From: Gammaproteobacteria bacterium
GTDB taxonomy: Bacteria; Pseudomonadota; Gammaproteobacteria; Eutrophobiales; Eutrophobiaceae
Assembly (NCBI GenBank): GCA_965215365.1
Contig: CBDCDS010000003.1
Span: 320,001 to 384,000 of the forward strand
DNA: 64,000 nucleotides
Direction: 5' to 3'
Shown here one piece after another: positions 6,972-62,592 of the stretch (the stretch's first letter is position 1; the number at the start of each line of letters is the position of its first letter). Under the pieces are notes generated by a model. That model was not told the origin of the DNA and did not search any database. It saw nothing but the letters and a program-made list of their open reading frames with translations. The position numbers and the translations under genes were made by a program.

Positions 6972-7025
6972 TTTTTACACAGGTGTCAAAAAATCTTTCA
7001 AGATTTTTTGACACCTGTGTAAAAA
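6972..7025. repeat. Perfect 26-bp inverted repeat upstream of AAA-DUF4143 gene
   Basis: TTTTTACACAGGTGTCAAAAAATCTT-TC-AAGATTTTTTGACACCTGTGTAAAAA. Confidence 0.95.
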
Positions 7026-7044
7026 TCTGGAATTATGCTGTTGC

Positions 7045-8157
7045 ATGAAACGCTACCTCGAATCACAGGTTCGGCAGGACCTGAAACGCAAAATGGTCTT
7101 GGTCGGCGGTCCGCGTCAGGTGGGGAAGACGACGCTTGCCCGCAAGATACTGGGGAAATCGAAGGCCGGCTACCTGAACTGGGACGTTGCCCCGCATCGG
7201 GATATTATTCTGCGCCAGGAGTTTCCCAAATCTAAACTCTGGGTGTTTGATGAAATTCACAAATACCCACGCTGGCGCAACTACCTGAAAGGCATTTACG
7301 ACATGTGTCAGCCGGGGCAGCGGATACTCGTCACCGGTAGCGCCCGGCTGGATTACTACCGCTTCGGCGGCGACTCCCTGCAGGGACGTTACCACTACCT
7401 GCGGCTGCACCCGCTGAGCGCGGCGGAACTGAAGCTGACCTCAGCGCAAAATTTCAAGGCGCTGCTTACCCTGGGCGGTTTCCCGGAACCGTTCCTGGGC
7501 GGGTCGAAGAAAGAAGCGCGCCGCTGGTCCAACGAATACCGCAGCCGCTTGGTGCGGGAGGATTTGGCAGACCTGGAACAGGTACAAGACCTGGGCAGCC
7601 TGGAGTTATTGATGACCCGGTTACCCGAGCTGGTCGGCAGCCCCCTGTCAGTCAACAGAGTAGCCGAACAGCTGCAGATCAGCCACAAGACCATCAGCAA
7701 ATGGCTGGACATTCTGGCAAGACTGTATGCAATCTTCTTCGTGGCGCCGTTCGGCGCGCCACAGATCAAGGCAGTGAAGAAAGCCCGCAAACATTATCAC
7801 TATGACTGGTCGCTGATACCGGATACCGCCGCAAGGTTTGAGAACCTGGTTGCGTGCCACCTGCTGAAATGGACAAATTTTCGCACAGATACGGAAGGTT
7901 GCTTGACTGAACTGCGCTATTTTCGCGACATCGAACAACGCGAGGTGGATTTCGTAGTAGTGGAAGACGGTGCCCCGGTGTTACTGGTCGAATGTAAATC
8001 CTCAGATCGCTACGCCAGCCTGCCGCTGAAATACCTGAAACGACGCTTCCCCGATGCAGACGCTTGGCAGGTATCCGCGTTTGGAGAGAAAGACTACGTC
8101 ACGCGGGAAGGGATTCGCGTGGCGCCGGCGCTTACGTTTTTGAACAGGTTGCAATAG
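7045..8157 (+). CDS. AAA_14 ATPase with DUF4143 and C-terminal PD-(D/E)XK-like domain
   Basis: GPRQVGKTT, FDEIH, TGS, DSLQGR, GGFP, FEN, EVDFVV...VECK. Confidence 0.88.
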   Translation: MKRYLESQVRQDLKRKMVLVGGPRQVGKTTLARKILGKSKAGYLNWDVAPHRDIILRQEFPKSKLWVFDEIHKYPRWRNYLKGIYDMCQPGQRILVTGSARLDYYRFGGDSLQGRYHYLRLHPLSAAELKLTSAQNFKALLTLGGFPEPFLGGSKKEARRWSNEYRSRLVREDLADLEQVQDLGSLELLMTRLPELVGSPLSVNRVAEQLQISHKTISKWLDILARLYAIFFVAPFGAPQIKAVKKARKHYHYDWSLIPDTAARFENLVACHLLKWTNFRTDTEGCLTELRYFRDIEQREVDFVVVEDGAPVLLVECKSSDRYASLPLKYLKRRFPDADAWQVSAFGEKDYVTREGIRVAPALTFLNRLQ

Positions 8158-8180
8158 AGCAGGGATATCGCGCCATACGA

Positions 8181-8305
8181 TTACACCTTCCAGAAATTCA
8201 ATTCCTGCCAAGTTTCAGGGAAACCCATTGGGGCGGTGGGGACATGTCTGTGTTCGTTTAAGATATGCAACAGTCTGTGTTTCCACCGCTCGTCGCCACT
8301 GACAG
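8181..8305 (-). pseudogene. C-terminal remnant of Abi_2 (AbiD/AbiF-like) protein
   Basis: WKHRLLHILNEHRHVPTAPMGFPETWQELNFW resembles the MGFPxxW C-terminus of Abi_2 proteins. Confidence 0.6.
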
Positions 8306-8419
8306 GGCCGCCCCAAGGAAGCGGCCCTTGAGCCGACAGCACGCTGCCAGCGGGTAACTGTGTGTATTCTAACACCCAAGCAAATGTGTTTGCAAACGCG
8401 CAACGCGCCTTGCCGGAAA

Positions 8420-8477
8420 GTTCAGGCAGAACCAATCTGGCGCGATCTTCGCATCACTGGGTGAGATATGCGGGCTA
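8420..8477 (+). repeat. Solo right end of MITE family A
   Basis: CGCGATCTTCGCATCACTGGGTGAGATATGCGGG identical to 21937-21970; followed by CTAAAAATTTTTAGAGG. Confidence 0.88.
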
Positions 8478-8556
8478 AAAATTTTTAGAGGCACTTTTGA
8501 GCAATTATTACTTTGACCCGATCCTGCGTTAAGATAAGCATCCTTTTGTAGCGTGG

Positions 8557-12018: not shown

Positions 12019-12051
12019 GTTTGGGTTCAGTTGTTTCCGGGAAGTGAGACA

Positions 12052-12143
12052 TCAAGGTGTGCCTACACCGGCGAAAGGGTCCAGTATGGTATCACCCCGG
12101 AAACTGAACAGCAGCATGACTCTTCTTGCCAGTTCTTCCGGTT
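12052..12143 (-). pseudogene. Fragment of N4/N6 DNA methyltransferase
   Basis: PEELARRVMLLFSFRGDTILDPFAGVGT (SAM-binding motif I region). Confidence 0.75.
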
Positions 12144-12322
12144 CTATTTCGACCCAGTCGAACAGGTAGGCCTTAGTCTCCTTGCGTACTTTGAGAAAAC
12201 TCGCGCTGGTAACACTGCGCCAGAGTTGTTTTGCCCACCTGCCGTGGTCCGCTGACGAAAGCCATTTTCTGAAATTCTGCAACAATCGTGTTGACCAGAG
12301 GGACGAGTGAGCGTTCGATCAT
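12144..12322 (-). pseudogene. Internally deleted AAA_14-DUF4143 ATPase remnant
   Basis: Manual translation: MIERSLVPLVNTIVAEFQKMAFVSGPRQVGKTTLAQ..., then in another frame KETKAYLFDWVEIE (cf. KARKHYHYDWSLI in 7045-8157). Confidence 0.8.
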
Positions 12323-12339
12323 GTCGATATTTTATACCA

Positions 12340-12371
12340 AACTCTGAAAAAGTCCTGACTTTTTCAGAGTT
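12340..12371. repeat. Perfect 15-bp inverted repeat upstream of AAA remnant
   Basis: AACTCTGAAAAAGTC-CT-GACTTTTTCAGAGTT. Confidence 0.93.
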
Positions 12372-12516
12372 GTATCTGATAAAGACACCTCTGATTTTTA
12401 GAGGTGGCCATGTGGTTGACGAATCCTGGAAAATATGTAGAATGCCGTTTTTGACAGGTATTCTGCCTGCTCGGTATTCATTTCCGACAATTGAACGAAG
12501 CAACTGAATATTGATT

Positions 12517-14055: not shown

Positions 14056-14064
14056 GATTTGGCC

Positions 14065-17427: not shown

Positions 17428-17742
17428 CTACAACGCGCTGACATGTAGCTTTATCCCTTCATTTTTGCGAAGTGATGAAACCAGGTCGGCAATGTTGCTG
17501 AGGCGCGGGTTGCCATTGTCACTGAGCATACGCATAAGGCTTTGTGGTTTTTTACCCATCAGTGCGCCGAGCTTTTTAAACCCCAGAGTTGCGTTGACGT
17601 AATCACGCAACAAGGTTTTAGCTACGTTAATTTCATTATTCAATAAACACTCGGCCGCTTCTGTCAGCAAGCCCACACGAAATGCCGGGTCGGTTAACAC
17701 GCGTTCTTGAATAGTCAGTTTAAAATCTCGAGTAAGTGCCAT
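17428..17742 (-). CDS. HTH antitoxin (addiction module antidote)
   Basis: MALTRDFK..., LRDYVNATLGF, GNPRLSN; downstream of RelE-like toxin. Confidence 0.82.
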   Translation of the reverse strand: MALTRDFKLTIQERVLTDPAFRVGLLTEAAECLLNNEINVAKTLLRDYVNATLGFKKLGALMGKKPQSLMRMLSDNGNPRLSNIADLVSSLRKNEGIKLHVSAL

Positions 17743-17748
17743 AATTGG

Positions 17749-18075
17749 CTATTCCTTCATCTTGCGGGATTTATAGGCTTGCCAACGGGCGTATGCCTTT
17801 TGAATATCCCGATATTGCTGTTTCTTGGCGCCCCCGCCCAAAAGGATGGTCAGTTCATTACCGTCTCTGCCATAGTAAATCCGGTATCCCGGGCCAAAAT
17901 TAACCCGGTATTCACTGACACCTTGTCCAACGGGTTTCGCGTTAGAGAAATTGCCTTGTTCCATGCGCGCAAGGGCAGTACGTATTTTCAAGGCAGCCTG
18001 AACATTGAGGGACAAAAACCACTTGGCAAATGGGCGTGAGCCGTCTCGTTCCTCGTATTCAACAATCCTTGGCAT
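17749..18075 (-). CDS. RelE/ParE-family toxin (addiction module killer)
   Basis: GVSEYRVNFGPGYRIYY, LLGGGAKKQQ..DI. Confidence 0.88.
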   Translation of the reverse strand: MPRIVEYEERDGSRPFAKWFLSLNVQAALKIRTALARMEQGNFSNAKPVGQGVSEYRVNFGPGYRIYYGRDGNELTILLGGGAKKQQYRDIQKAYARWQAYKSRKMKE

Positions 18076-18084
18076 AGGGGGAAG

Positions 18085-18100
18085 ATAACATATTTGTTAT
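18085..18100. promoter_or_regulatory. Putative TA operator
   Basis: ATAACA-TATT-TGTTAT palindrome 9 bp upstream of the toxin ATG. Confidence 0.5.
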
Positions 18101-18217
18101 TATTATCAAAACTGAGTGTTGTGTCCTCGGAAGTGTAGTGATTTACACGCCAGCCGTGGCTGTGTAGTATAACGCCATCTTTGCTCTGTAGTCCCCGCAT
18201 CGGGAGTTGCAATCACC

Positions 18218-18380
18218 GTGTCCACGATCGAGTCCCTGCTTGATACCTATCGTTCCGAAACGGCCACTGCGCGTGATCAAGGTGCTGCCTTCGAGAGGCT
18301 GATGGCGCCGGCAAGACGCTCACCTCGTTACGCATTGTCGAAGCACTGGTGGGACGCGGCGGCTACGTGTTGTATCTAGT
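18218..18380 (+). pseudogene. Internally deleted remnant of a type ISP (LlaGI-like) restriction helicase
   Basis: VSTIESLLDTYRSETATARDQGAAFERL joined out of frame to GAGKTLTSLRIVEALVGRGGYVLYLV; ends at a MITE A end. Confidence 0.65.
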
Positions 18381-18437
18381 CCGCATATCTCAGTCTGAAA
18401 TGCGCTCGGTCATCCGCTTTGATCTGTGCTGAAAAAA

Positions 18438-18494
18438 TGATAATATATTATCAATTAAATCGAAATTAAGGCAATGATTGATAATATACTATCC
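18438..18494. promoter_or_regulatory. Two HipB-type operators
   Basis: TGATAATATATTATCA (perfect palindrome) and TGATAATATACTATCC. Confidence 0.7.
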
Positions 18495-18767
18495 TTATAC
18501 AAGTCTCCAAACGAAATCCAGCGCCACTTATCCGCAACGTTCAAAAACGCGCGCAAGCTCAAAAAGCACAGCCGTCGGGAAGCAGCCATCCGTACCGGCG
18601 TGCCGGCGCCAACCATTCGCCGCTTTGAAGACGCTGGCGAGATCTCGCTACGGCAACTGCTGATGCTGTGCGATGTCTATGGCAACCTCAAAGCTGCCGC
18701 CTCGCTGTTTCCCCGTCCCATCCCACAAACCATGGATGAATTGATTGCGTTGAGTGATGCAAAGTGA
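18474..18767 (+). CDS. HipB-like HTH antitoxin
   Basis: XRE-type HTH (GVPAPTIRRFEDAGEISL); GTGA overlap with hipA. Confidence 0.82.
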   Translation: MIDNILSLYKSPNEIQRHLSATFKNARKLKKHSRREAAIRTGVPAPTIRRFEDAGEISLRQLLMLCDVYGNLKAAASLFPRPIPQTMDELIALSDAK

Positions 18768-20053
18768 GACTGGTAAAGGCGCTCTATCATGGTTTTGGAG
18801 CGGGCAAGCCCGTTGCCATGGGTCAGCTCGTCTGGCAAGACCGGCATGCCTGGTTTGAATTTGCCGCAGAATTTTTGCAACGCGACTTGCATCCGTCTCC
18901 TTTCTCTCTGGACCTGACCCCCACGTTACAGAAGGCGCCGGCGGAACCTTTCAAGGGGTTGCATGGATTGTTCAGCGATTCGCTGCCGGACGGTTGGGGG
19001 CTGTATCTCATGGACAAGGCATTCAGGCAAACCGGGAAAGACCCGGCTACGCTCACCCCGCTTGACAGGTTGGCTTATCTGGGCGGGCGCACTATGGGGG
19101 CGATTTCATATCAGCCTGATGACAATGCGGCACAACCGATCGGCAGGGAGCTCGATATGGACTCGATCGGTATTGAAGCAGTCCGCCAGTACCAGGGAAA
19201 GCTCACAGAAGTACTCGAGCATCATGCCCTGAACGGCACGCCGTCCGCCGGCGCCAGACCAAAAATTCTTATTGGTTTATGCGGTGATAAAGTCATTGAG
19301 GGCGCCGGTGACCTGCCGCCTGGGTATGACCACTGGTTGGTCAAATTCCCAACCGGCCAGACACCCGATAAAAAATCAGACGGCACCATAGAATATATCT
19401 ACTCGCTCATGGCCCGGCAAGCCGGCCTCGATATGCCTGAGACAAGGCTCATCCCGACGAGTGGCGGCAATGCCTATTTCATGGCCCGCCGCTTTGACAG
19501 GAGCGCCGGCAACCGTCGCCATCACGTGCATAGCGTGGCCGGTCTGTTGAATCTGGATTTCAGGGTCGCTAACTTTGAATACCGGGAACTCATCAAACTC
19601 TGTGGCTTGCTCACTCACTCCCATGCGGAAAAGGTGGAGCTGTTCCGGCGCATGATTTTCAATATCGTTACCGGCAATCGCGATGACCATACCCGAAACT
19701 TCGCGTTCATGCTCTCAGACCGTAACGAGTGGAAAAATACACCGGCGTATGATGTCACTTGGTCCCGGGGGATAATGGGAGAACATACCCTGAGCATCGA
19801 CGGGAAAGGTAAAGGTATCCTTCTCGATGATGTACTTGCTATTGCAAACAGTGCCTCCATCTCCAGACACGAAGCAAGCCGTGTCATTGAGAGTGTGACA
19901 GATGCCGTGTCCGACTGGAGCAATCTGGCGCATCATTATGCCGTACCCTCAGAACAGCGCCTCGACATACATCAACACACTGTGCGCCAAAAGCGAATGA
20001 TGTCAGCTGCGACAACGGTAGTATTTTCCAGTACCAAAATGAGCCTGAAGTAG
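18764..20053 (+). CDS. hipA: HipA-family kinase toxin
   Basis: DSLPDGWG, SAGARPK, WLVKF, RFDR, GNRDDHTRNF, PAYD. Confidence 0.92.
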   Translation: MRLVKALYHGFGAGKPVAMGQLVWQDRHAWFEFAAEFLQRDLHPSPFSLDLTPTLQKAPAEPFKGLHGLFSDSLPDGWGLYLMDKAFRQTGKDPATLTPLDRLAYLGGRTMGAISYQPDDNAAQPIGRELDMDSIGIEAVRQYQGKLTEVLEHHALNGTPSAGARPKILIGLCGDKVIEGAGDLPPGYDHWLVKFPTGQTPDKKSDGTIEYIYSLMARQAGLDMPETRLIPTSGGNAYFMARRFDRSAGNRRHHVHSVAGLLNLDFRVANFEYRELIKLCGLLTHSHAEKVELFRRMIFNIVTGNRDDHTRNFAFMLSDRNEWKNTPAYDVTWSRGIMGEHTLSIDGKGKGILLDDVLAIANSASISRHEASRVIESVTDAVSDWSNLAHHYAVPSEQRLDIHQHTVRQKRMMSAATTVVFSSTKMSLK

Positions 20054-24281: not shown

Positions 24282-25046
24282 ATGCACAACCACGATAAAT
24301 TCGGCCTGCTGCTGTGGCTCAGGTCAGCATTATTCCTGCTGGGCATGGGTATCTCTACCCTCATTATGGTCCCCGTCGCCCTGCTGCTGTTGGCGGCGCC
24401 CTTCCCGCTCAGGTTCCGCCTGGTGGCGAACTGGGCGCGGTTTAACCTGTGGTGGCTGGGGGTGACCTGCAGGATCAAAGCGGATATTAGCGGGCTGGAA
24501 AACATCATCGACCAGCCGGCCATCATCATGTGCAAACACCAGTCCGCCTGGGAAACCCTGATGATCCAGTTGCTGTTTCCCCCTCAGGTCTGGATACTGA
24601 AACGGGAATTACTGCATATCCCCATCTACGGTTGGGGGCTGGCGGCCATGAAGCCTATTGCCATCGATCGTTCCCTGGGAGTCCGTTCACTGAAACAGAT
24701 CGTGCGCCAGGGCTTAGAACGGCTACACGCGGGACTCTGGGTGGTGGTATTCCCGGAAGGCACCCGACTGGCGCCCGGCGTGCGCCGTAAATATCACCCC
24801 GGCGGTGCCATGCTGGCAGAAAAGGCCGGTTGCCCGGTGCTACCAATCGCACACAATGCCGGCTACCTGTGGCCGCGCAACAGCTTTCTCAAACACCCCG
24901 GCGTCATCCGCATGGTCATCGGCCCACCCATCCCGACCCAAGGGAAAAAGGCCGCGCAAATTATCCGGGAAACAGAGGATTGGATTGAAACCACGGTCGC
25001 CAGCCTGCCGGCGCCCGCCTGCGATACCCCAGGGGGCGGATTGTAA
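24282..25046 (+). CDS. plsC: 1-acyl-sn-glycerol-3-phosphate acyltransferase
   Basis: KHQSAWET, FPEGTR. Confidence 0.9.
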   Translation: MHNHDKFGLLLWLRSALFLLGMGISTLIMVPVALLLLAAPFPLRFRLVANWARFNLWWLGVTCRIKADISGLENIIDQPAIIMCKHQSAWETLMIQLLFPPQVWILKRELLHIPIYGWGLAAMKPIAIDRSLGVRSLKQIVRQGLERLHAGLWVVVFPEGTRLAPGVRRKYHPGGAMLAEKAGCPVLPIAHNAGYLWPRNSFLKHPGVIRMVIGPPIPTQGKKAAQIIRETEDWIETTVASLPAPACDTPGGGL

Positions 25047-25058
25047 ATCCGCCCCCTG
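25030..25058. terminator. 13-bp stem hairpin at plsC end
   Basis: CAGGGGGCGGATT-GTA-AATCCGCCCCCTG; no strong U-tract. Confidence 0.5.
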
Positions 25059-25077
25059 TGATATATTGTGCATCATA

Positions 25078-25506
25078 ATGCTCAGGTACGTTTTCGACAC
25101 GGATGTTATTGTAGCAGCTATGCGTAGCCCTTCGGGAGCGTCTGCTGCGTTATTGGGTGAAGCATTGGGCGGCCGGATAAAGATGCTGGTCAGCGTGCCG
25201 GTATTCTTTGAATACGAAGCTAAATGTACTTCTTCGGACCACTGGGCAGCAGCAGGGTTGGACCTGGAACAGGCGCGGGTCTTTGTTAACGGACTGGCAA
25301 CGGTTATTGAACCGGTAAAGACACATTTTTTGTGGCGTCCAACCCTGAAAGATCCTAATGACGAAATGGTGCTTGAGGTTGCAGTGAACGGTCAGGCTGA
25401 TGCTATCGTCACTTTTAACCTGCGGGATTATGGCACAGTACCGAAAATGTTTAATATTGCGGTGATCAATCCGGCGGAAGCATTGAGGAGAGTAAGAAAT
25501 GGCTGA
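25078..25506 (+). CDS. PIN-domain toxin
   Basis: VFDTDV, DPNDEMVLEVAV, VTFNLRD. Confidence 0.88.
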   Translation: MLRYVFDTDVIVAAMRSPSGASAALLGEALGGRIKMLVSVPVFFEYEAKCTSSDHWAAAGLDLEQARVFVNGLATVIEPVKTHFLWRPTLKDPNDEMVLEVAVNGQADAIVTFNLRDYGTVPKMFNIAVINPAEALRRVRNG

Positions 25507-25753
25507 AATATCAAGCTATCCATTGAGACTACCGAAATCATTAAAAGAAAAGGTTGCCATAGTCGCCAAGCGGGATGGATCGAGCATGAATCAGTTCATT
25601 ACCATTGCTTTAGCCGAGAAGATATCAGCGCTGGAAACCGAGAAATATTTTGAAAACAGGATAAAGGAGTCAGATATAAACGCTTTTCGCTCACTACTTT
25701 TTCGGTCTGGCGGAGAACCTCCCCGTGTTGGCGATGAGTTACCTTCTGCCTGA
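25499..25753 (+). CDS. RHH/HicB-like antitoxin
   Basis: YPLRLPKSL...SMNQFITIALAEK; overlaps the PIN gene. Confidence 0.82.
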   Translation: MAEISSYPLRLPKSLKEKVAIVAKRDGSSMNQFITIALAEKISALETEKYFENRIKESDINAFRSLLFRSGGEPPRVGDELPSA

Positions 25754-25779
25754 AAAAAATTCCTAATCATCTAAATTTC

Positions 25780-26310
25780 TCATGACTTTCTGAAATCTCT
25801 GTCAATTCGTGATTTAACCAGAGAACTCGTTGCTGTTGCCAATCTGGTTTTGTTTAACCGTTTATACAGAAGTTCCTTATCGGTTATACCCTGCTTGGCG
25901 AGCTCTCGTGTGAATTCCATATCCTTGGGCCGTCCTGCCACATATTTTGATATAGCCAGATCATGCACTTCAAGACAGAGCCCCGTTATTCCATTCGTGT
26001 TCTCATTACTGATACTGACCAGACGTTTTTCCCAACCGTCTGGAAGCACTGCGGTTTCCGGGCCAACGCCTTGTGCATAATAGCCAAACTGTTCATGGAA
26101 AAATGAGCCCTCACCAATGGAACCATCAACCAGATCTGCGCGATCCGGTTTGTTTCTGGGGTAAACGTCCATTTCCATGGAAATACAAAGCGTGTTCGGC
26201 GCGTTTGGAAACTGACCAAGAATTGATTGGCTGCCGATGATAATCAATTCACCGTCATCTGCGATTGCGCCACTGGCGCGAATCAAATGCTCAAGTTCTG
26301 AACGCTTCAT
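25780..26310 (-). CDS. DUF6036-like nucleotidyltransferase
   Basis: LEHLIRA, IIGSQS, SMEMDV, HDLAISK, GRPKD. Confidence 0.75.
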   Translation of the reverse strand: MKRSELEHLIRASGAIADDGELIIIGSQSILGQFPNAPNTLCISMEMDVYPRNKPDRADLVDGSIGEGSFFHEQFGYYAQGVGPETAVLPDGWEKRLVSISNENTNGITGLCLEVHDLAISKYVAGRPKDMEFTRELAKQGITDKELLYKRLNKTRLATATSSLVKSRIDRDFRKS

Positions 26311-26758
26311 AAATGCGTTTTCGCTCCTGATGACTGAGAACGCCGGCAAAAGGTGAAGATTGTCTGAGACGAAACGCCTTGTCAGTACAGCTTACGATAA
26401 ATGCAGCAACGTCCGGCCACGGTTGAGTAAGAATTTGTTGCCATTCTTTGATGTATTGTGGCATCTGCTCAGGCGGTGTTTTTTGACTCCAGCGCCGCAA
26501 ATTTCGTAGCGGAATCTCCAGCAGACCAGGGTCCACGTTTATCTTTTGCACGATTTTGCAATGTAAGGCCAAACTCCTTGCCTCAAGCAGACGATGGTCG
26601 GAATAAGGAGCTGAAGTATCCGGTGTTGCTGGCGCCCAGCTGCTTACAGCTTTAAGACCTGCTGCGCGTTTGCGCGCACGATAGGTGCGCATCCGTTCAG
26701 CAGGAGTCATAGGACTGTCGGCGCGTGGCCTTCCTCTCTTTTTTACGGTTTTACTCAT
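26291..26758 (-). CDS. Putative antitoxin/regulator partner of DUF6036
   Basis: KRGRPR, PAERMRTYRARKR, LRQSSPFAGVL; overlaps the NTase; upstream palindrome CGTAAC-CA-GTTACG. Confidence 0.65.
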   Translation of the reverse strand: MSKTVKKRGRPRADSPMTPAERMRTYRARKRAAGLKAVSSWAPATPDTSAPYSDHRLLEARSLALHCKIVQKINVDPGLLEIPLRNLRRWSQKTPPEQMPQYIKEWQQILTQPWPDVAAFIVSCTDKAFRLRQSSPFAGVLSHQERKRIYEAFRT

Positions 26759-26854
26759 TATATTTATCGTAACCAGTTACGTGAATGAACGCAACTGAAC
26801 TCTCATGGTCAAGGTACTGCCCGCCCTTCGCAGAAAGCAGGCTGCTTTACAAAA

Positions 26855-26893
26855 AGGCGTAATATCGAATATTATAGATTCAATATTACGCCT
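26855..26893. repeat. Orphan copy of the AAA-associated inverted repeat
   Basis: Identical to 28970-29008; abuts the IS4 end. Confidence 0.9.
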
Positions 26894-27810
26894 CACTAGT
26901 GTCCGGTTAATAATCGAATAAATTCAGTTGGTTAGAGAGGGCGTCATGGTTCATGTTGGTCTCACAGTCGCTAAGTAGTTGATTCATCGCGCAAACTTGA
27001 GGTTGGACTTGGCTCGGACCACGAAGAAGGCCGAGGCCTGTGTGAACGGGTAGAGTCGCTCGAAGTCGAGATAGGCCCGGTCCATGATATAGAAGGCGCC
27101 GGGCTCCGGTAGCAGGGTATCGAGCGCCTTGACATCGTGCAGTGTGCCCGGTGACACATGGATAAACGTGGGGATATTGCCGCGCAGGTCTAGCAAGGTA
27201 TGCAGTTTCACCGCCGCCTTGGTGCGTCGGAAGTGCGCCCAGGGGAATACGGATAGACATAGGTCGATGGTGGTGGAATCGAGGGCATAGACCGTGTTGT
27301 CGAGTTCGACGCCGAAGCGGTCGTCGAGATACAGACGTCGTGCGCGGTGTATCAGGGCGTGTGCAAAGTCGGCATAGATACGCCAGTCGCGTTGCTCGTT
27401 GGCATCGGCCAGGGTGCTGCGCGACACCGTGCTGCGTAGCCCCATATGATAGAGTTTGTTGCTGTGCGCGCGCAGGCAGGCTTCGATATCGCGCAGGCTC
27501 TCGCGATAGGTGAGTTGCGCGAACGCCATGCAGCGATACTGGTCTTGGCAACTGAAACGTTTGACATGCTGATTGCCCCGGTAGCGTTCAATACAGCGCC
27601 GCAGGGTATGGTGGGGAAGATGCTCCATTGCCTGTGCGAAAAGCAGTTTGCCGTGGTACATGTGTGGGGGCTCCCATCGTGTTAGTCGATGGAAGAGTTT
27701 GAGGCAAACGGGACCGGCAGTTCAAGTCGGTGACACCCACAAAAAGAGTATTTTATAATGAATTACAGTAAGTTAACTCTAAGCTTCACCGGATATCCCG
27801 GACACTAGTG
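26894..27810 (-). mobile_element. IS4-family element, internally deleted
   Basis: 13-bp TIRs CACTAGTGTCCGG / CCGGACACTAGTG; no matching target duplication. Confidence 0.85.
26907..27661 (-). pseudogene. IS4-family (DUF4372 + DDE) transposase, truncated
   Basis: ALDSTTIDL, VKLHTLLD, MDRAYLDF, then an out-of-frame C-terminus ...SNQLNLFDY; the region with the catalytic E is missing. Confidence 0.85.
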
Positions 27811-27818
27811 ATACTCAC

Positions 27819-28067
27819 TCAAGGAGCGCTGGCCTCGATACGGCAATTTTTGTAAACAAATTCAGGGGCAAGATCAGCACCGGTCTGCCAGGCAATGGTA
27901 TCAAACGAAACGCGAACGTCCTTGAAGATACAGGGATCCTGTATTTTTTTGAAAATTCCGAAACTCAGATAGGGTTTCATATCCAACAATCCGTTTTCTC
28001 CGTTATCGAAACCCACCGAGAGGATATAATCTCCCCTGTCCTCAACTGAAGTGATAGCCGGGTACAT
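27819..28067 (-). CDS. DUF2442-family antitoxin
   Basis: LSVGFDNG...TIAWQTGADLAPE. Confidence 0.8.
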   Translation of the reverse strand: MYPAITSVEDRGDYILSVGFDNGENGLLDMKPYLSFGIFKKIQDPCIFKDVRVSFDTIAWQTGADLAPEFVYKNCRIEASAP

Positions 28068-28077
28068 CAACTGCTCC

Positions 28078-28240
28078 TCATTGCAGGGGCTGAATCTTGA
28101 ATGGTTCCTCACCGTTCATCACGAGCTTCCAATTTGCTATTAGTTCCTCCTGGTGGAGTTCAGCCCACGCCAGGACCAGCTTGGCCTGCTTGCTCGGCAG
28201 CCTGCCGTAAGTTATTTCACAAGTTTGAATATTCACCTTT
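28078..28240 (-). pseudogene. C-terminal half of a DUF4160-family toxin
   Basis: GRLPSKQAKLVLAWAELHQEELIANW...KIQPL; N-terminal half missing. Confidence 0.75.
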
Positions 28241-28612
28241 GACCTTTTTGGAATCATACGTCCCTGCGCCATAGCTATTGTAAAAATGCCACTCATCTCC
28301 GTCTGTAAAAATAATCATCGGGATACCGCCTTGTCTGGCAGCGTACTCGAAGACCTGCTCTTGGCCTTGTGGAGAACATTTGCCCGGAGCCTTCACCTCC
28401 ATAAAAATTACCGGCTCTCTGGGAGAATGGCAAAGTGCTATATCCACTCTCAAGCTGCGGATGTTATATTCGGGAATAAGATGAACGGGCGATTCCGTAT
28501 CCCAACCCAGTTCCCGTAAAATCGGATAACAAATATGTGACCTTACCAACTCCTCACTGTTGTACGCGCCCGTATCGAAATATTGCTTGATTTTGTTAAT
28601 CAGATTTTCCAT
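28217..28612 (-). pseudogene. Type I restriction HsdR N-terminal-like nuclease, truncated
   Basis: SEELVR, PILRELGWD, PEY, RVDIAL, MEVK, FTDGDEW; fused to the DUF4160 fragment. Confidence 0.7.
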
Positions 28613-28675
28613 TGAACAAGCCGCGCCTCTTTCAGGGAAGAGGTGGCAATGTAACATAATCGCAGTATGAGATAA

Positions 28676-28969
28676 AGAAGTTCCTTATCGGTTATAACGT
28701 ACTTGGCGAGCTCGCGTGTGAATTCCATATCCTTGTCATCTGCGATTGCGCCGCTGGCGCGAATCAAATGCTCAAGTTCTGAACGCTTCATAAATGTGTT
28801 TTCGCTCCTGATGACTGAGAACGCCGGCAAAAGGTGAAGATTGTCTGAGACGAAACGCCTTGTCAGTACAGCTTACGATAAATGCAGCAACGTCCGGCCA
28901 CGAGCGCAACTGAACTCTCATGGTCAAGGTACTGCCCGCCCTTCGCAGAAAGCAGACTGCTTTACAAAA
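28676..28969 (-). pseudogene. Doubly deleted copy of the DUF6036 module
   Basis: Colinear with 25867-26854 but lacking about 327 bp and about 365 bp. Confidence 0.88.
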
Positions 28970-29008
28970 AGGCGTAATATCGAATATTATAGATTCAATA
29001 TTACGCCT
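28970..29008. repeat. 16-bp inverted repeat (1 mismatch) upstream of AAA-DUF4143 gene
   Basis: AGGCGTAATATCGAAT-ATTATAG-ATTCAATATTACGCCT. Confidence 0.9.
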
Positions 29009-29020
29009 ATTATTGAATCT

Positions 29021-30277
29021 ATGCGTTCCCGATCCCTGCTTCCACTGTTGCGCGCACTGGCCACCGAGTCATCCTTGGGGCGTATTGTGGTATTGACCGG
29101 GGCGCGCCAGACCGGCAAAACCACGTTGGCCCAGCGCGGGTTTCCTGAATATACCTACCTGTCACTGGAAGACCCCGTAACCCGACCCGAATACTGCGCG
29201 CTCAGCGCCGCACAATGGCGCGCCGGTTATCCGCTGGCAATATTGGACGAAGTGCAAAAAGCGCCGAGCCTGATCGAGTCGGTCAAGGCGGCTTACGATG
29301 CCTGGCCTGAGGTGCGCTATCTGTTGCTCGGTTCCAGCCAGATACTGCTGCTGGAGAAAGTGCGTGAAAGTCTGGCCGGGCGCGCCGCCCTGGTGGAACT
29401 GTATCCGCTGACACTGCCGGAAATGTTGACGGAGGGTTGGCGTAACCCGGTGCCGGAATCACGTTTTATTACCTGGTTGAGAAGTGGCGCCAGGACAGCT
29501 TTTACGGGCATTCCAAGGGCCGAAACCGGTCATGCCCGCAGTGAGCTTGCGTTTCGGCAATATCTCCAATTCGGCGCCATGCCCGCGGTTGCGGCAGGTG
29601 AGTTGAACGAACCCGAACGCTATGATTGGTTAAGCGCCTATGTGCGCACTTACCTGCAAAGAGACTTGCGCGATCTTGCCAATTTGCGCGACCTGACTCC
29701 TTTTGCTCGAGCCCAGAAAAGCCTCGCCGGCCTGACCGGACAGCTGCTCAATATCAGTGAGCTAAGTCGCCTTGCCGGCATCACTGCACCCACGGCCAAA
29801 CGCTTTATTCAGTATCTTGACCTCAGTTATCAGGTCATATTGCTTGAACCCTGGTCTCGTAACCTTGGCAAGCGTCTGGTTAAGGCGCCCAAGTTACATT
29901 TTCTCGACCCGGGCATTCAGCGCAGCCTGCTGCAACGCCGCGGCGAGCTTACCGGCGCCGAGTACGAGAGCGCCGTGGTTGCCGAGATTTTCAAACAACT
30001 GAAAAACAGTCGTTTACCTGTGAGTTGCCATCACCTGCGCACGGCTGACGGTCGTGAAGTGGACTTACTATTGGAATTGGAGACGGGTTTTGTACCAATT
30101 GAAATCAAACAGACCACGCATGCATCAGCAAGCGCTGCGCGCCATCTGAAACGACTAGAAGACATCTTGGACAAACCCGTACTTCATGCCCTGCTCGTAT
30201 CCAACGACCCCCAAATTCGCAGCTTGGGGGATAATATTACTGCGGTTCCAGCACCTTGGTTATTAGCGTTTCAGTGA
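29021..30277 (+). CDS. AAA_14-DUF4143 ATPase with PD-(D/E)XK-like tail
   Basis: GARQTGKTT, LDEVQ, ESLAGR, KAPKLHFLDPG, EVDLLL...IEIK. Confidence 0.88.
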   Translation: MRSRSLLPLLRALATESSLGRIVVLTGARQTGKTTLAQRGFPEYTYLSLEDPVTRPEYCALSAAQWRAGYPLAILDEVQKAPSLIESVKAAYDAWPEVRYLLLGSSQILLLEKVRESLAGRAALVELYPLTLPEMLTEGWRNPVPESRFITWLRSGARTAFTGIPRAETGHARSELAFRQYLQFGAMPAVAAGELNEPERYDWLSAYVRTYLQRDLRDLANLRDLTPFARAQKSLAGLTGQLLNISELSRLAGITAPTAKRFIQYLDLSYQVILLEPWSRNLGKRLVKAPKLHFLDPGIQRSLLQRRGELTGAEYESAVVAEIFKQLKNSRLPVSCHHLRTADGREVDLLLELETGFVPIEIKQTTHASASAARHLKRLEDILDKPVLHALLVSNDPQIRSLGDNITAVPAPWLLAFQ

Positions 30278-30333
30278 CTACTCGCGTTAGAATGGTCTTC
30301 TCAAACCATATCGAGCAACCTCGGGAGCACAAC

Positions 30334-31341
30334 ATGAAAGCAGTGGTACTGGCAGAACTTGGCGGGCCGGATAATCTGGCAATCAAAGAGGTGGATACGC
30401 CCGAACCAGGGCCAGGCGAAGTACGGGTGAAACTGCACAATTCCGCCCTTAACCGGCGCGACTACTGGATGACCGTCGGCAGGTATCCGCGCACCAGCCT
30501 GCCTTGCATTGCCGGTTCCGACGGAGCCGGCACTATTGATGCCGTGGGTGCGGGCGTTGATGACGGAATGACGGGCAGGGAAGTAGTGGTATATCCGGCG
30601 CGGGAGTGGGGTGACAGCGAGCTCGCGTTCGGACCGCATTTTCGGGTACTGGGCATGCCCGATCAGGGCACGTTTGCCGAATATATCTGCTGCCCGGCAA
30701 CAGACGTGTATGACAAACCCGCGCACCTGGGCTGGGAGCAGGCGGCCGCGACACCGCTGGCTGGCCTCACCGCCTGGCGCGCCGTCGTCACCCAGGCGCA
30801 GGTGCAGGCCGGACAGACGGTACTGGTGACCGGTGCCGGTAGTGGCGTGTCCACCTTCGCCATCCAGTGGGCCGCCGGGCTCGGCGCCGAGGTCTATGTA
30901 ACCAGTGGGTCGCAAGAGAAAATCGAAAAAGCCCGGGCTATCGGCGCCGTTGGTGGCATCAGCTACCGGCAACGCGACTATCATAAAACCCTGAGCAAGC
31001 AGGCCGGCGGCTTTAACGCCATCATCGACAGCGCCGGTGGGGACGACATGAATAACCTGCTAGGTACCCTGAGGCCTGCCGGACGGTTCGTATTCTTCGG
31101 CGCTACCATGGGTATCCCCGCAACCGGACTGGAACTGCCGAGGCTGTTTTTTAACCAGACTCGCATACAGGGAACGATGATGGGCTCTAATGCCGAGTTC
31201 AAAGCCATGCTGGATTTTGTCAGTGACAGGAAGGTCGAGCCGGTCGTGGACCGGGTGTTGCCCATGAACGAAGCGGTGGCCGCGCATAAACTGCTGGAAA
31301 CGTTCGGGCAGACCGGCAAGGTCGTTTTGCAAAACAGTTGA
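30334..31341 (+). CDS. MDR-family oxidoreductase (quinone reductase-like)
   Basis: GSDGAG, VTGAGSGV, GKVVL; GGAG RBS. Confidence 0.88.
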   Translation: MKAVVLAELGGPDNLAIKEVDTPEPGPGEVRVKLHNSALNRRDYWMTVGRYPRTSLPCIAGSDGAGTIDAVGAGVDDGMTGREVVVYPAREWGDSELAFGPHFRVLGMPDQGTFAEYICCPATDVYDKPAHLGWEQAAATPLAGLTAWRAVVTQAQVQAGQTVLVTGAGSGVSTFAIQWAAGLGAEVYVTSGSQEKIEKARAIGAVGGISYRQRDYHKTLSKQAGGFNAIIDSAGGDDMNNLLGTLRPAGRFVFFGATMGIPATGLELPRLFFNQTRIQGTMMGSNAEFKAMLDFVSDRKVEPVVDRVLPMNEAVAAHKLLETFGQTGKVVLQNS

Positions 31342-31415
31342 CATTTCAGGGTTGCAGTGATGAGGCTGGCAATCCCTCGTCATAGCAGCCGCTCTTCTGC
31401 CGTCCGTTGTGATAC

Positions 31416-31508
31416 TGTAAAACTCGTATTAAGCTCTTGTAAAACTCGTATTAAGCTCTTGTAAAACTCGTATTAAGCTCTTGTAAAACTCGTATTAAGC
31501 TGTAAAAT
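31416..31508 (+). repeat. 22-bp tandem repeat, about 4 copies, upstream of AAA-DUF4143 gene
   Basis: TGTAAAACTCGTATTAAGCTCT at 31416, 31438, 31460, partial at 31482, ending in TAAAAT. Confidence 0.96.
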
Positions 31509-31515
31509 ACAGTCC

Positions 31516-32769
31516 ATGTACGACAGGTTTTTACAAACATCACTGGAGGAACTGCTCAGGGAGTTCCGCGTGGTTTATCTCACCGGCCCCAGACAGTCGG
31601 GCAAGACCACGCTGGCGCGCGCCGTTGCCGAACAAGCCGCAATGGATTATGTCACCTTGGATGATCAAACGCTGCTGGCGACCGTCCTGTCGGACCCGCA
31701 TGGTTTCGTGCGCTCACTGGAGGACAGGAAGATCGTGCTCGATGAGTTCCAATATGCTCCGACATTGATACCTGCCATCAAGGAAGCATCAGACCGGTTG
31801 GCTCCTGAGGCAAGAGGCAAATTCCTGTTGACGGGGTCCACGGATATATTTCGTTCTGCACAGGCTCAGGAAGCGCTGCCGGGGCACCTGGCGCGCCTAG
31901 AACTGTATCCGCTGTCTGTTGCCGAAGTGCAGGGCACCCGCCGGAATATTATCGATTACCTGTTGGCGGGGGAGTTTCAATCATGTAGTGCCCCCTTCAT
32001 CAGTCGGCAACAACTTGCCGGGTGGCTGCTGCGTGGCGGCTATCCGGAAGTCATGGACAAAAGCGCCCGCGGCAGGCAGGTGTGGTTCAAATCCTATATG
32101 GAAGGCCGGCTGTATAAGGATTTCGAAAACCTGTACGCAGCGCGTGGCGATTACCACTCGAAGCTGCGCGCTATGGCACCTTATCTCGCGGGCTTAAGCG
32201 GCAACTTGTTGAAATACGCCAATCTTGCCAATGATCTGGAACTGAATGACAAACTGGTGAAGGACTATATCGAAATTCTCGAGTTGATGTTTATTATTCA
32301 GCGGCTCCCGGCCTGGCTGAAAAATCGGGCGAAGCGAATGGCGACGCGCATGCCGAAAATTCATTTTGTCGATACTGGTCTGGCCTGCCATTTGCTGGGC
32401 TTGCGCAACGAACGGCAGTTGCTGCAAAGCCAGTACTACGGAGGCCTGCTGGAGAACATGGTGTATATGGAATGCGTTAAACAGGCCTGCTGGGCCGGGG
32501 AGGATGTTCGCCTGCACCACTTTCGCGATCAGCGGCAGCATGAGGTGGATATAGTGCTGGAACGCGCTGATACGACCGTTATCGGTATTGAAGTCAAGGC
32601 CTCTGCCAGCGTAACCGCGGGTGATTTCAAGGGCTTGGCGGTACTGGCAGAACTGGCCGGCGCGCAGTTCGAGCGCGGCGTCCTGTTTTACACAGGCCAG
32701 GAAGTACTGCCGTTTCGCTACCGGAATATGATTTTCCACGCGTTGCCGCTGGGCTTGTTGTTATGGTAA
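31516..32769 (+). CDS. AAA_14-DUF4143 ATPase with PD-(D/E)XK-like tail
   Basis: GPRQSGKTT, LDEFQ, GGYP, PKIHFVDTG, EVDIVL...IEVK. Confidence 0.88.
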   Translation: MYDRFLQTSLEELLREFRVVYLTGPRQSGKTTLARAVAEQAAMDYVTLDDQTLLATVLSDPHGFVRSLEDRKIVLDEFQYAPTLIPAIKEASDRLAPEARGKFLLTGSTDIFRSAQAQEALPGHLARLELYPLSVAEVQGTRRNIIDYLLAGEFQSCSAPFISRQQLAGWLLRGGYPEVMDKSARGRQVWFKSYMEGRLYKDFENLYAARGDYHSKLRAMAPYLAGLSGNLLKYANLANDLELNDKLVKDYIEILELMFIIQRLPAWLKNRAKRMATRMPKIHFVDTGLACHLLGLRNERQLLQSQYYGGLLENMVYMECVKQACWAGEDVRLHHFRDQRQHEVDIVLERADTTVIGIEVKASASVTAGDFKGLAVLAELAGAQFERGVLFYTGQEVLPFRYRNMIFHALPLGLLLW

Positions 32770-32931
32770 CCTCTAAAAATACCCTTGCGGTCAGGTACCA
32801 GCCCGCATACCTCGCCGATTGTTCCCGCTGACCTCGCTAAGTCACTTGTTACCATCTGCACTAACAGGATATACTTCAGGTTACTTTTTTCCGTTTTTGG
32901 CAAAAAAGGCACAACCTGATTTTATATTTTC

Positions 32932-52822: not shown

Positions 52823-52857
52823 GTCATCCTCATTCGGTTTACGTTGTGGCAACATGG

Positions 52858-59764: not shown

Positions 59765-59773
59765 TGAGAAGGA

Positions 59774-60232
59774 TCACAAGGACAGTGATTGCAGCGCTGC
59801 GGCCGGCGCCCCCTGTTCGTCACCTACCTGCTGCAACCAGTGCTCACGCTGTGCCTGCCAACTGGTTCTGTTCCAGATTTCAAATTTATTGCCCTGACCC
59901 AGCAGCACCGCCTGTTTATCGATTTGGGCATAGTCGCGCAGTTCCGCCGGGATCAGGATTCTGCCGTGCGTGTCCAACTGGCAATCGGTGGCATAGCCGC
60001 GCATCATCTGCTTGGCCCGGCGGCTGCGAGTATCAAAATCCGACAGGTCTGCCAGTTTTGCTTCGATAATTTCCCATTCGGGCAACGGGTACAGCCACAG
60101 GGAACGATCCAGCGGATTCAAGGTCTGCACCAGCGCGCCGTCAGCCCCACCCACGAGCCGTTCGCGATAACGGCTGGGTACGGCCAATCTGCCCTTGCTA
60201 TCAAGACTGACGCTGCTGAAACCCCGGAACAT
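59774..60232 (-). CDS. mraZ: Transcriptional regulator MraZ
   Basis: LDSKGRL..P and LDTHGRILIP repeats. Confidence 0.96.
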   Translation of the reverse strand: MFRGFSSVSLDSKGRLAVPSRYRERLVGGADGALVQTLNPLDRSLWLYPLPEWEIIEAKLADLSDFDTRSRRAKQMMRGYATDCQLDTHGRILIPAELRDYAQIDKQAVLLGQGNKFEIWNRTSWQAQREHWLQQVGDEQGAPAAALQSLSL

Positions 60233-60258
60233 TTCTCAACCCCTCTGACACATTTAGT

Positions 60259-60284
60259 ACCACAATTACCCACTTTCTCCCACA
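60259..60284 (-). promoter_or_regulatory. MraZ boxes
   Basis: Minus strand TGTGGG-AGAA-AGTGGG-TAAT-TGTGGT, 10-bp period. Confidence 0.85.
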
Positions 60285-60550
60285 ATCTCTAACTATAGAA
60301 AGCAAAGCAGGGGGCTGTCAAGTAAATGTTGTAACTTTTCCGTAAAAATTTGCCAGTGTTACAAGCACTTATGCGAGACTGTGCGAAGCAGTCGGTGGGA
60401 ATTGAGAAATAAACTTATATAAATTAGATAGTTGTCAAGGTTTATTGAGAAAAGACAGAAGGAGGGAGAGGGACAAGCACAAAGTGAGGGGGTGAGAAGT
60501 TACTACTGGTAACCTCTAAAAAAAGTGTCCCTTCGAGACTTTTTCCCACT

Positions 60551-60600
60551 GGATTCCCGCATTCGCGGGAATAACGATGAAGAGATCGGGAATGACGAAC
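60551..60600. repeat. ATTCCC-N8-GGGAAT (dRS3/REP-like) hairpin with GGGAATGAC tail
   Basis: ATTCCCGCATTCGCGGGAAT; GGGAATGACGAAC also occurs at 702-714. Confidence 0.6.
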
Positions 60601-60626
60601 GGGGGGGGCGAGGAGTTACGGGTACC

Positions 60627-61013
60627 CTACTGCTTATAAAACCAGAACTCCATCTCCACCGCGGCGTTGATGGGCAGCGCGCTGACACCAATGGCGGTAC
60701 GGGCGGGGAGACGCCTATCGGCGCTGAATACAGCTTCCCAGGCTTTGTTGATGTCCGCGAACCGGCCCATCTGCGTAGTGAAAATGCTGGCGCTGACCAT
60801 ATCATCTAGGGACAGGCCGAAATCGGGCAAGGCTTCGAGCAGGTTGCTGAGGATCCTGGCCGCCTCGGCGCCGGCGCCGCCTTGCTCCAGAGCGCCAGTC
60901 TCCTTGTTCAAGGCGAGCATGCCCGCGGTTTTGTAGAACGGGCCAGCCTTGACCAGCGGACTGTAGCGGAACAGCGGCGCCGACAGGTTGTTTGAACTGA
61001 GTGCTTGTATCAT
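60627..61013 (-). CDS. RidA/YjgF-family protein
   Basis: YSPLV, PARTAIGVSALP..AAVEME. Confidence 0.88.
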   Translation of the reverse strand: MIQALSSNNLSAPLFRYSPLVKAGPFYKTAGMLALNKETGALEQGGAGAEAARILSNLLEALPDFGLSLDDMVSASIFTTQMGRFADINKAWEAVFSADRRLPARTAIGVSALPINAAVEMEFWFYKQ

Positions 61014-61050
61014 GGGTCGAAGTCCTCGTTTATGAGGGATATTATACCTT

Positions 61051-61100
61051 AAAAAAATCCGGCGCGATGTTCGCGTCGCTTGGTGAGATATGCGGGTTAA
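61051..61100 (+). repeat. Solo right end of MITE family A
   Basis: AAAAAATCCGGCGCGATGTTCGCGTCGCTTGGTGAGATATGCGGGTTAA. Confidence 0.82.
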
Positions 61101-61164
61101 ACAGCTTGCGTAATCATCTTGTGCGCGGCCTAGAACAGTGAGCTTGCCGGATTGGCCGACAAGC

Positions 61165-62496
61165 TCAATTCTCACTCTCCCGGGCATCCCACAATTCCTG
61201 CCAATGATTGACCATGTAAAAGGGTATGGAAACAACGGGGGGTTGATATTGCAACGGCGCGGCCGATATTTTAATACCCCATCGTTGTTGTCTTTCCGAG
61301 AGAAACTGGTGCAGGCTTCTCAAGCGCCCGGTTTTCCCTGCTTTTACCTCTATCGGCACGAGGTCAGTACCGGATTGGCATACATAATCAATTTCAGCGC
61401 TGCTGTTTCTGGCCTCTCTGGCCCAGTAATACAGCGCCGGCCTAGTGAAACAATCCTGGCAGGCAAGCAGTTCCTGCCCGACAAATTGCTCCATTAACGC
61501 GCCATGATAGAGCGCCATCAGCTCTTTCTCCCGGATGATGTCTGTCGCCAGACCACAAAGGTTTTGCATCAGCCCGACATCAAGAAAAAGCACTTTGAAA
61601 AAACGCTCGTTGATATTGGCTCCCAGGGGCAAGCCCTCAGCGGATGACTTGATGACTTTGTGATATACCCCGGCCAGCGCCAGTAATTCCAAGGCGGTTT
61701 TTATGTTTCTGGAAAGTTCATCAGGGTCAACCCTGGCATATTTGAACTTGCTTCCCACCTGTTGCACGGCGGACTCGAATACCCTGCCGACGTTTTCGTG
61801 GCGTCCGAATTTTACGTATTTGTTGAAATCATCCCGATAAGTCTGTAGCAGGGAGGTCTGGATTTGGCGACATTGCTCATAGTTCCCGGACTCCAGGTAT
61901 TCCGCCACCACTTCAGGCATACCTCCGAGCAGCAGGTATTCCCTTACCCGGTCAAGCAGAGTGTTGTGAACCACCGGTTCTGCGAACAAACTACGGTCAT
62001 TTTTGAGCGCTTCGACTACCGTCTCCTGCCCCCGGGCAAGCAGGAACTCCTCAAAACCCATGGGCTTCATGTACAGGTACTGGACACGCCCCACCGGCAT
62101 GGGCAAACCACTCGTGCTCAGGGTCAGCTCCAGCAATGAACCCGCCGCAATCACGTGCAGTTCCGGCGTTTCCTCATAGAAGTAGCGCAACACCGAAACA
62201 GCCTTGGGAAATGCCTGGATCTCGTCTATAAACAACAGTGTTCTGCCGGGAACGACTTTTTGCCCGGTGAGTATTTCGATTTTGTTGAGTATCTCCCTGG
62301 GCTTCATACTCCGGAACAGTTCCGCAACCTGCGGTTCCGATTCAAGATTGATGACCGCCATAGCAGCAAATTCCTGCTCACCAAAGCGTTGCACAGACCA
62401 GGATTTCCCCACCTGACGCGCACCCCGGATCAACAAGGGCTTGCGCCTAGGAGCATCACGCCAAGCCCGCAGAACAGCATCAATGGAACGCTTCAC
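61165..62496 (-). CDS. AAA_14-DUF4143 ATPase with PD-(D/E)XK-like tail
   Basis: GARQVGKS, IDEIQ, AGS, PVGR, GGMP, FLDVG, EIDYV...IEVK; GTG start with GGAGG. Confidence 0.88.
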   Translation of the reverse strand: MKRSIDAVLRAWRDAPRRKPLLIRGARQVGKSWSVQRFGEQEFAAMAVINLESEPQVAELFRSMKPREILNKIEILTGQKVVPGRTLLFIDEIQAFPKAVSVLRYFYEETPELHVIAAGSLLELTLSTSGLPMPVGRVQYLYMKPMGFEEFLLARGQETVVEALKNDRSLFAEPVVHNTLLDRVREYLLLGGMPEVVAEYLESGNYEQCRQIQTSLLQTYRDDFNKYVKFGRHENVGRVFESAVQQVGSKFKYARVDPDELSRNIKTALELLALAGVYHKVIKSSAEGLPLGANINERFFKVLFLDVGLMQNLCGLATDIIREKELMALYHGALMEQFVGQELLACQDCFTRPALYYWAREARNSSAEIDYVCQSGTDLVPIEVKAGKTGRLRSLHQFLSERQQRWGIKISAAPLQYQPPVVSIPFYMVNHWQELWDARESEN

Positions 62497-62536
62497 GATC
62501 GGCGCCTCCGGCAAATAAGAAGGCACTATACTACAG

Positions 62537-62592
62537 ATTTGTCAAAAATACAAGGTAATTATTGACAGAATTTGTCAAAAATACAGGGTAAT
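62537..62592. repeat. 23-bp direct repeat with 33-bp period upstream of AAA-DUF4143 gene
   Basis: ATTTGTCAAAAATACA(A/G)GGTAAT at 62537 and 62570; nested TTGACA-N5-TGTCAA. Confidence 0.92.

Follow-up and report, generated by a model that had tools for sequence, protein, structure and literature searches.

Private, phased repeats over the promoters of AAA_14-DUF4143 ATPase–nuclease genes and a candidate two-part code relating protein to site

A 64,000-nt stretch of contig CBDCDS010000003.1 (hereafter the window), from a 2.7-Mb gammaproteobacterial genome labelled G000, contains four intact genes (A, C, D and E) and one remnant (B) of the AAA_14-DUF4143 family of ATPase–nucleases, also known as PDC-S01, each preceded by a different repeat. 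What do these repeats do, and why does each gene have its own? We find that two small patches of the encoded protein covary with letters of the repeated unit and allow them to be predicted. The best reading, with a probability of about 0.65, is a one-gene self-limiting cassette, in which an intact site-reading nuclease represses its own gene.

The four intact genes score above cut-off for both Pfam AAA_14 and Pfam DUF4143 and match the PADLOC PDC-S01 profile; no NCBIfam match was obtained. Pairwise, the proteins are 23–31% identical. Remnant B still matches the family profile (7e-7), and intact 409-aa orthologues in three congeners (G016, G001 and G018) have the same palindrome upstream. Genome-wide, a profile search returned 31 intact family genes and two remnants, the closest paralogue of each gene in G000 being 26–54% identical. 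The domain is present in 18/18 congeners searched, with 1 to 36 matches per genome. A phylum-wide search at E 1e-100 gave nothing beyond G000; viral contigs yielded just 16 and 9 loci, and a single clade is represented in 137 plasmid records.

The repeats upstream of family genes are real and exceed chance. The preliminary description of this DNA had placed repeats before 7045+, 12322−, 29021+, 31516+ and 62496−; all five are there, and each outscores every one of its 40 dinucleotide shuffles. Scored within 120 nt of the start, strong repeats (score ≥11) precede 17/33 family genes and 87/1161 control genes with a free upstream region and starts from a simple in-house gene caller, confirming the enrichment that the description had proposed to look for. 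Restricted controls gave 50/537 (AT-rich) and 12/232 (atypical codon use). Inverted repeats ending ≤20 nt from the start are found at 15/33 family genes and 16/1161 controls. We rejected a repetitive extragenic palindromic (REP) origin of the B palindrome because it precedes the intact orthologues as well. REP half-sites show no enrichment within 200 nt of family genes (upstream 2/32, downstream 3/32, against 96 and 90 of 1986 genes). The REP-like palindrome family itself has 31 full copies on C3, 29 of which share the inner length, with half copies at window positions 12385-12400 and 32770-32785.

The promoters are also unusual. A −10-like hexamer lies 5–9 nt before the start, as in leaderless transcripts, in 18/33 family genes and 77/1161 controls, while a Shine–Dalgarno (SD) sequence precedes 2/33 and 288/1161, respectively. 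Among homologues elsewhere the −10 is seen in only 57/226. The gene at 62496 does have an SD, and its orthologues have ATG at that start.

The repeats resolve to two to seven copies of a private ~13-bp site, spaced by 22–23 or 32–33 bp, or to palindromic pairs. Across 101 arrays, between-copy identity is 0.58–0.89 in the 13-bp core and 0.30–0.56, near random, in the linkers; the operator of E has a 16-bp core conserved across 9 aligned promoters, with variable spacers. For most arms, the 14-mers are found nowhere in the genome except at the gene they precede. Genome-wide, near-cognate resident sites show neither enrichment nor depletion (log2 observed/expected 0.07 for 16 resident 12-mers, against −0.09 for the 40 non-resident and −0.05 for the 32 shuffled ones), giving no sign of a regulon or of avoidance.

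The spacings follow the helical repeat. Spacings near multiples of 11 bp had been reported for the window, and those of 22 bp at gene D and 33 bp at genes E and C agree with this, whereas the period at gene 7045 is 32 and not 33. In a set of 77 homologues spanning many phyla, every one of the 31 direct repeats that score ≥12 has a period of 22, 23, 44, 45 or 46 bp; 235 neighbouring open reading frames used as a control gave 0/6 direct repeats with those periods. Array architecture also tracks the protein tree (169 proteins; FastTree and quick IQ-TREE): all 60 arrays of period 22/23 lie in one supported 82-row clade that includes gene D, period 32–33 typifies the clades of E (19/30) and A, and palindromes dominate the remaining tree. 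At 40–70% protein identity, 10–62% of pairs retain upstream similarity (score ≥14), compared with 0–1% for the far-upstream and downstream DNA of the same pairs.

A link between protein and site was suggested by consensus units of the sister clade of gene D, in which the 5′ half appears to track the start of the recognition helix of a predicted winged helix, and the 3′ half a hairpin in the nuclease domain. The rules were written down before new loci, some of them viral, were read. Of 88 held-out proteins, 62 yielded a repeat unit and 61 were kept, one being dropped for poor anchoring. The 5′ rule covered 52 of these loci (46 right, 1 wrong, 5 unclear) and the 3′ rule 41 (34 right, 2 wrong, 5 unclear); a later-made extension of the 3′ rule was right in 15/17. 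A blind scan by mutual information, covering 411 residues and each site column, led to the same two patches. Columns 6, 7 and 8 pointed to residues 242, 244 and 243 (z 6.8, 4.9 and 8.9), and columns 13, 14, 15 and 17 to residues 336, 336, 338 and 337 (z 5.4, 6.0, 5.7 and 7.5), numbered on the G000 sister gene (gene D equivalents 244-246 and 339-341).

Helix and hairpin classes mix freely: four hairpin classes are found alongside DxK helices, and four helix classes alongside the KD[QKR] hairpin. When the rule and the closest relative gave different answers, the rule was the better predictor for column 15 (13 to 3; 20 to 5 excluding relatives >75%) and column 8 (5 to 0; 6 to 0 with the same exclusion), and about level for column 6 (5 to 4). 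A helix code trained on one clade also favoured cognate promoters over permuted ones in 23 lineages outside it (2.40 vs 0 ± 0.59; 0/20000 permutations), with gene D ranked first, and far-upstream DNA as a control gave p 0.68. In the clade of A, examined by eye afterwards, each of two hairpin types is paired with its own 3′ half. Tree-independent contrasts agree in direction (same/opposite 4.6/0.0, 3.7/0.0, 1.8/0.0, 1.4/0.0 and 2.3/0.2), and crossed controls show no such agreement (0.3/1.9 and 0.6/0.0). Within G000, all 31 helix triplets are distinct. These covariations support well the earlier proposal of cognate, helically phased sites, and suggest that each site is specified by two small patches, the recognition-helix start for the 5′ half and the nuclease hairpin for the 3′ half.

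The same data bear on a plainer explanation, in which the repeats are promoter elements, sites of an unrelated host regulator or hitchhiking DNA. Many 5′ halves do look like a −35 hexamer, and 23 bp corresponds to a −35 plus spacer; sites and genes are co-inherited, and tree-independent contrasts are few. However, each site is private to one gene. The covariation peaks on two predicted DNA-facing patches, collinear with the site, and is absent in crossed controls, while the code transfers across clades and flanking DNA similarity vanishes where the sites persist. We regard this explanation as highly improbable.

An alignment-based model of gene D (predicted local distance difference test score, pLDDT, 87; a single-sequence fold reached only pLDDT 35) suggests a AAA+ domain, a helical lid, a winged helix and the DUF4143 nuclease region. 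For residues 1-295 the best structural matches are SSO1545 (2FNA) and PAB2304 (2QEN), with Z scores of 14.2–14.8 and root mean square deviations of 4.5–5.0, and Foldseek matches include the Cdc6/Orc1 structures 1FNN, 2QBY and 2V1U, some of them origin-bound. A sequence search for a solved relative found none (best E 0.005). The DUF4143 region is classed as PD-(D/E)XK, with its function listed as unknown (PMC3424549). The Walker A/B residues and the nuclease E, D and ExK residues are invariant in 31/31 paralogues, the latter being kept in 166-168/169 homologues, so that ATPase and nuclease activities both appear to be retained.

Phased arrays of 22 bp are reminiscent of plasmid iterons. Together with the modelled resemblance to Cdc6/Orc1, origin-bound structures included, this raises the possibility that the protein initiates replication of a cryptic replicon. 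Such a role is extremely improbable: a conserved nuclease domain is attached, the genes stand solitary among housekeeping genes at 31 per chromosome, and many sites are single palindromes.

In the reading we prefer, that of a self-limiting cassette, a STAND/Cdc6-like AAA+ ATPase with a winged helix and a PD-(D/E)XK nuclease would bind as a single unit to a ~13-bp site of its own. The 5′ half would be read by the residue triplet that opens the recognition helix, and the 3′ half by a β-hairpin just ahead of the catalytic aspartate of the nuclease domain. That the protein binds its own site through both domains is, given the covariation, very probable. Two to seven sites lying two or three helical turns apart, or palindromic, would bring the subunits onto one face of the DNA, where their ATPase domains could oligomerise. 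Since the sites cover the −35/−10 region, the bound protein probably shuts its own promoter. The autorepression suggested in the preliminary description accords with the position of the sites, which overlap the −35..−10 interval of the predicted promoter in 28/28 tandem-array genes with a leaderless-type −10; repression itself is what we expect from this position. The array would both restrict and retain the few molecules of intact nuclease. Distinct specificities without cross-repression would allow dozens of divergent copies to coexist.

Loss or displacement of the array, through phage breakdown of host DNA, DNA-mimic proteins or loss of the locus, would free or induce the nuclease. Whether it would then serve as a defence or addiction effector is close to an even call, leaning slightly towards no. 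A Thermus thermophilus family gene that rose 6.6-fold only with Argonaute and plasmid together (PMC4406477) gives slight support. A bolder generalisation would make PDC-S01 as a whole a large natural family of nucleases that are driven by ATP and read sites through a modular two-part code, with the promoter array as a DNA antidote whose loss or destruction releases the enzyme. It seems doubtful; if true, it would amount to a one-gene addiction or guard system that needs no partner protein or RNA, and would offer a source of re-specifiable 13-bp DNA readers.

Several results weigh against a self-limiting, site-reading nuclease. No clear repeat (score <9) is present in 9/33 family promoters, so the claim that every gene has its own repeat was too strong. 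Twenty-six of the 88 held-out loci gave no repeat unit and one more was dropped; moreover, these loci were found via the training alignment and are hence kin of the training rows, and the nearest-relative comparison includes training rows. Column 14 is predicted equally well by other residues, with no single-residue assignment. In the transfer of the helix code, 38/61 outside lineages were not scorable, and genes A and C ranked only in the middle. Tree-independent pairs on supported branches number just 1–6 per trait, no single test reaching p 0.05, and genome G004 has two genes with identical specificity residues. Finally, in a published phage test a member of PDC-S01 was among the four of eight candidates that gave E. 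coli B no protection from T4, T5 or T7 (10.1101/2024.09.26.614923).

This last result also counts against a rival in which the real targets are ~13-bp sites in incoming phage, plasmid or rival DNA, the protein a rare-cutting, site-specific nuclease directed at them, and the operator a copy of such a site that it cuts poorly. The precedent is I-TevI, which binds operator and homing site equally well but cuts the operator ~100-fold less (PMC2988022). On such an account many specificities would provide coverage without a methylase. The nuclease domain itself covaries with the site, 31 different specificities reside in one genome, and several palindromes have the hairpin-read halves opposite each other, 1–4 bp apart; in the central pair of the operator of A they point inward, on an orientation taken from relatives. 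Against it, the host shows no avoidance of near-cognate sites, and no foreign target was identified. We consider this rival distinctly unlikely.

The cassette is gained and lost as a discrete unit. Between G000 and G006, whose family genes compared here are 88–97% identical, both flanks differ at 13/24 family genes and at 6/94 single-copy controls, with homology mostly beginning at the operator edge and stopping within 30 nt of the stop codon; one family gene occupies different loci in the two genomes. Such turnover would suit a self-mobilising element, in which the array is an end or origin for ATPase assembly and the nuclease nicks to excise or copy. Proteins pairing a Cdc6/ORC-clade NTPase with a restriction endonuclease (REase) have been described as transposon-derived (PMC10853773, PMC11342252), and 2/251 homologues (L037 and L126) have their own array again after the stop codon, partial and in direct orientation. 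The initiator- or iteron-like self-mobilising cassette of the preliminary description nevertheless fares poorly. At five junction sets, from genomes ~90% identical, we saw no target duplication; sites are nearly confined to the 5′ end, unlike the binding sites at both ends of an insertion sequence (IS); and there are no near-identical copies, the closest G000 paralogues being ≤54% identical, unlike those of an active IS. Local insertions account for many of the flank changes, insertions and deletions are frequent in both genomes, and a toxin–antitoxin pair moved too. One clear relocation carries extra DNA on both sides, and the flank-turnover controls are general genes rather than matched accessory genes. 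Self-mobilisation is thus unlikely. In contigs from four runs no joints appeared at 27900-33600; as contigs lose rare variants, this has no weight either way.

Other observations concern the surroundings of these genes. Unlike restriction–modification or toxin–antitoxin pairs, with their linked methylase or antitoxin gene, the family has no methylase among the scanned neighbours in the window, and in 28/31 family genes no same-strand gene is called ≤30 nt downstream (the caller omits genes <90 codons). Of the 33 family genes, 1/33 lies within 600 nt of a tRNA gene. A gene-less operator follows a tRNA gene at G000 C3:2221610-2221650; the same operator occurs at a paralogue, C3:1617666, where it is preceded by an apparent tRNA 3′ end, as if the cassette had once been at that tRNA. 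A segment of ~46 kb (L344 in G006, G000 C3:381053-427403) appears inverted between the two genomes, its ends being the 3′ ends of two family genes, one of them gene E. A second copy of the operator of C, at 26855, was considered as a cassette end and ruled out, since it belongs to a local duplication (Table 1).

Table 1. Family genes, putative operators and predicted promoter elements in the window
Feature	Position	Strand	Description
Gene A, AAA_14-DUF4143 (PDC-S01)	7045..8157	+	370 aa; helix triplet SHK, hairpin RDIEQRE
Operator of A	6965..7028		Four alternating ~13-bp sites, period 32
Operator of A, central pair	6972-7025		Perfect 26-bp inverted repeat, arms 6972-6997/7000-7025
−10-like hexamer of A	7034..7039	+	5 nt before ATG
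Remnant B	12173..12322	-	First ~41 codons of a 409-aa family gene fused to a later piece; internal deletion
Operator of B	12340..12371		Perfect 15-bp inverted repeat, arms 12340-12354/12357-12371; kept before intact orthologues in three congeners
Gene C, AAA_14-DUF4143 (PDC-S01)	29021..30277	+	418 aa; helix triplet TAP, hairpin RTADGRE
Operator of C	28970..29018		16-bp inverted repeat 28970-29008, one mismatch; third site 33 bp further
−10-like hexamer of C	29009-29014		Adjoins third operator site
Second copy of C operator, gene-less	26790..26893	+	Within ~104-bp local duplication, truncated by IS4-type element
Gene D, AAA_14-DUF4143 (PDC-S01)	31516..32769	+	417 aa
Gene D, predicted AAA+ and winged-helix domains			AAA+ (Walker A K30, Walker B D76 E77); winged helix (recognition helix from 244-246, NDK)
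Gene D, predicted nuclease domain			Hairpin 337-343; E313, D345, E359, K361
Operator of D	31416..31501	+	22-bp unit ×4, head-to-tail sites, period 22
−35-like hexamer of D	31481-31486		Inside last repeat unit
−10-like hexamer of D	31503-31508		
Gene E, AAA_14-DUF4143 (PDC-S01)	61165..62496	-	443 aa; GTG start 62496 behind SD
Operator of E	62537..62592		23-bp direct repeat 62537/62570, one mismatch, period 33

Upstream of gene C, a hot spot at 24805-28900 contains a PIN toxin gene, a DUF6036 nucleotidyltransferase gene with a partial duplicate, a piece of an IS4-type transposase and an HSDR_N fragment. An ABC transporter operon and glyQS flank a Gp49-like toxin gene and a HipA-like kinase gene at 17428-20053. 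Two 5′ remnants at G000 C3:1885722-1885869 and C3:1984689-1984794 keep the promoter and break 105 and 106 nt past the start codon; in remnant B the break comes at about 125 nt. For two relatives of gene D, L027 and L028 (62%), the search table lists frames of 739 and 791 codons, compared with ~427 by rescan.

If the code holds, a DNA site can be predicted for each PDC-S01 member, together with the residues to exchange, so that binding, repression and cutting become directly testable. The code also suggests a substrate and an off-switch for a common, uncharacterised ATPase–nuclease family. Activity may hinge on the native array and the expression level, so cloning tests may fail. It would be unusual, as a regulatory design, for a nuclease domain to help read its own gene's operator and for specificity to be built from two interchangeable halves. 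The family itself is already known, though uncharacterised (PMC12988326, PMC13356809, 10.1101/2024.01.29.577857), and the recognition code is the new part. PDC-S01, an ATPase fused to PD-(D/E)XK, has been described as the fourth most common prokaryotic defence candidate, with ~39,000 occurrences and validation pending (PMC12988326). The proteins here have the same domains as PDC-S01/COG1373; in the literature covered, mostly open-access main texts, we found no description of an operator, promoter structure or recognition code for DUF4143, PDC-S01 or COG1373.

Individual features have precedents. R.DpnI resembles what is proposed for this family in that its catalytic and winged-helix domains are each sequence-specific (PMC4117772). 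It differs in that each domain separately reads a 4-bp methylated site and in having no ATPase. The Cdc6/ORC-clade NTPase and REase elements (CR-effector relatives; Tn7/Mu ATPases) share the domain pairing, with a proposed transposon origin (PMC10853773, PMC11342252), whereas the family here shows no second end, no target duplication and no recent copies. The AAA+, helical and winged-helix architecture appears, on the model, to be common to this family and to archaeal Cdc6/Orc1, SSO1545 and PAB2304; unlike Cdc6/Orc1, the family has an extra C-terminal nuclease domain and dozens of paralogues with private sites, and shows no sign of origin function. We know of no self-operator for R.DpnI. I-TevI does have one, as a nuclease that binds an operator over its own promoter (PMC2988022), but it is a GIY-YIG enzyme with no ATPase, a single operator and a known homing site, and its catalytic domain is disengaged at the operator. 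In the present family the sites form arrays with which the nuclease domain itself covaries. By analogy, the family would work like an autorepressing nuclease of the I-TevI type on a Cdc6-like chassis, while belonging to neither.

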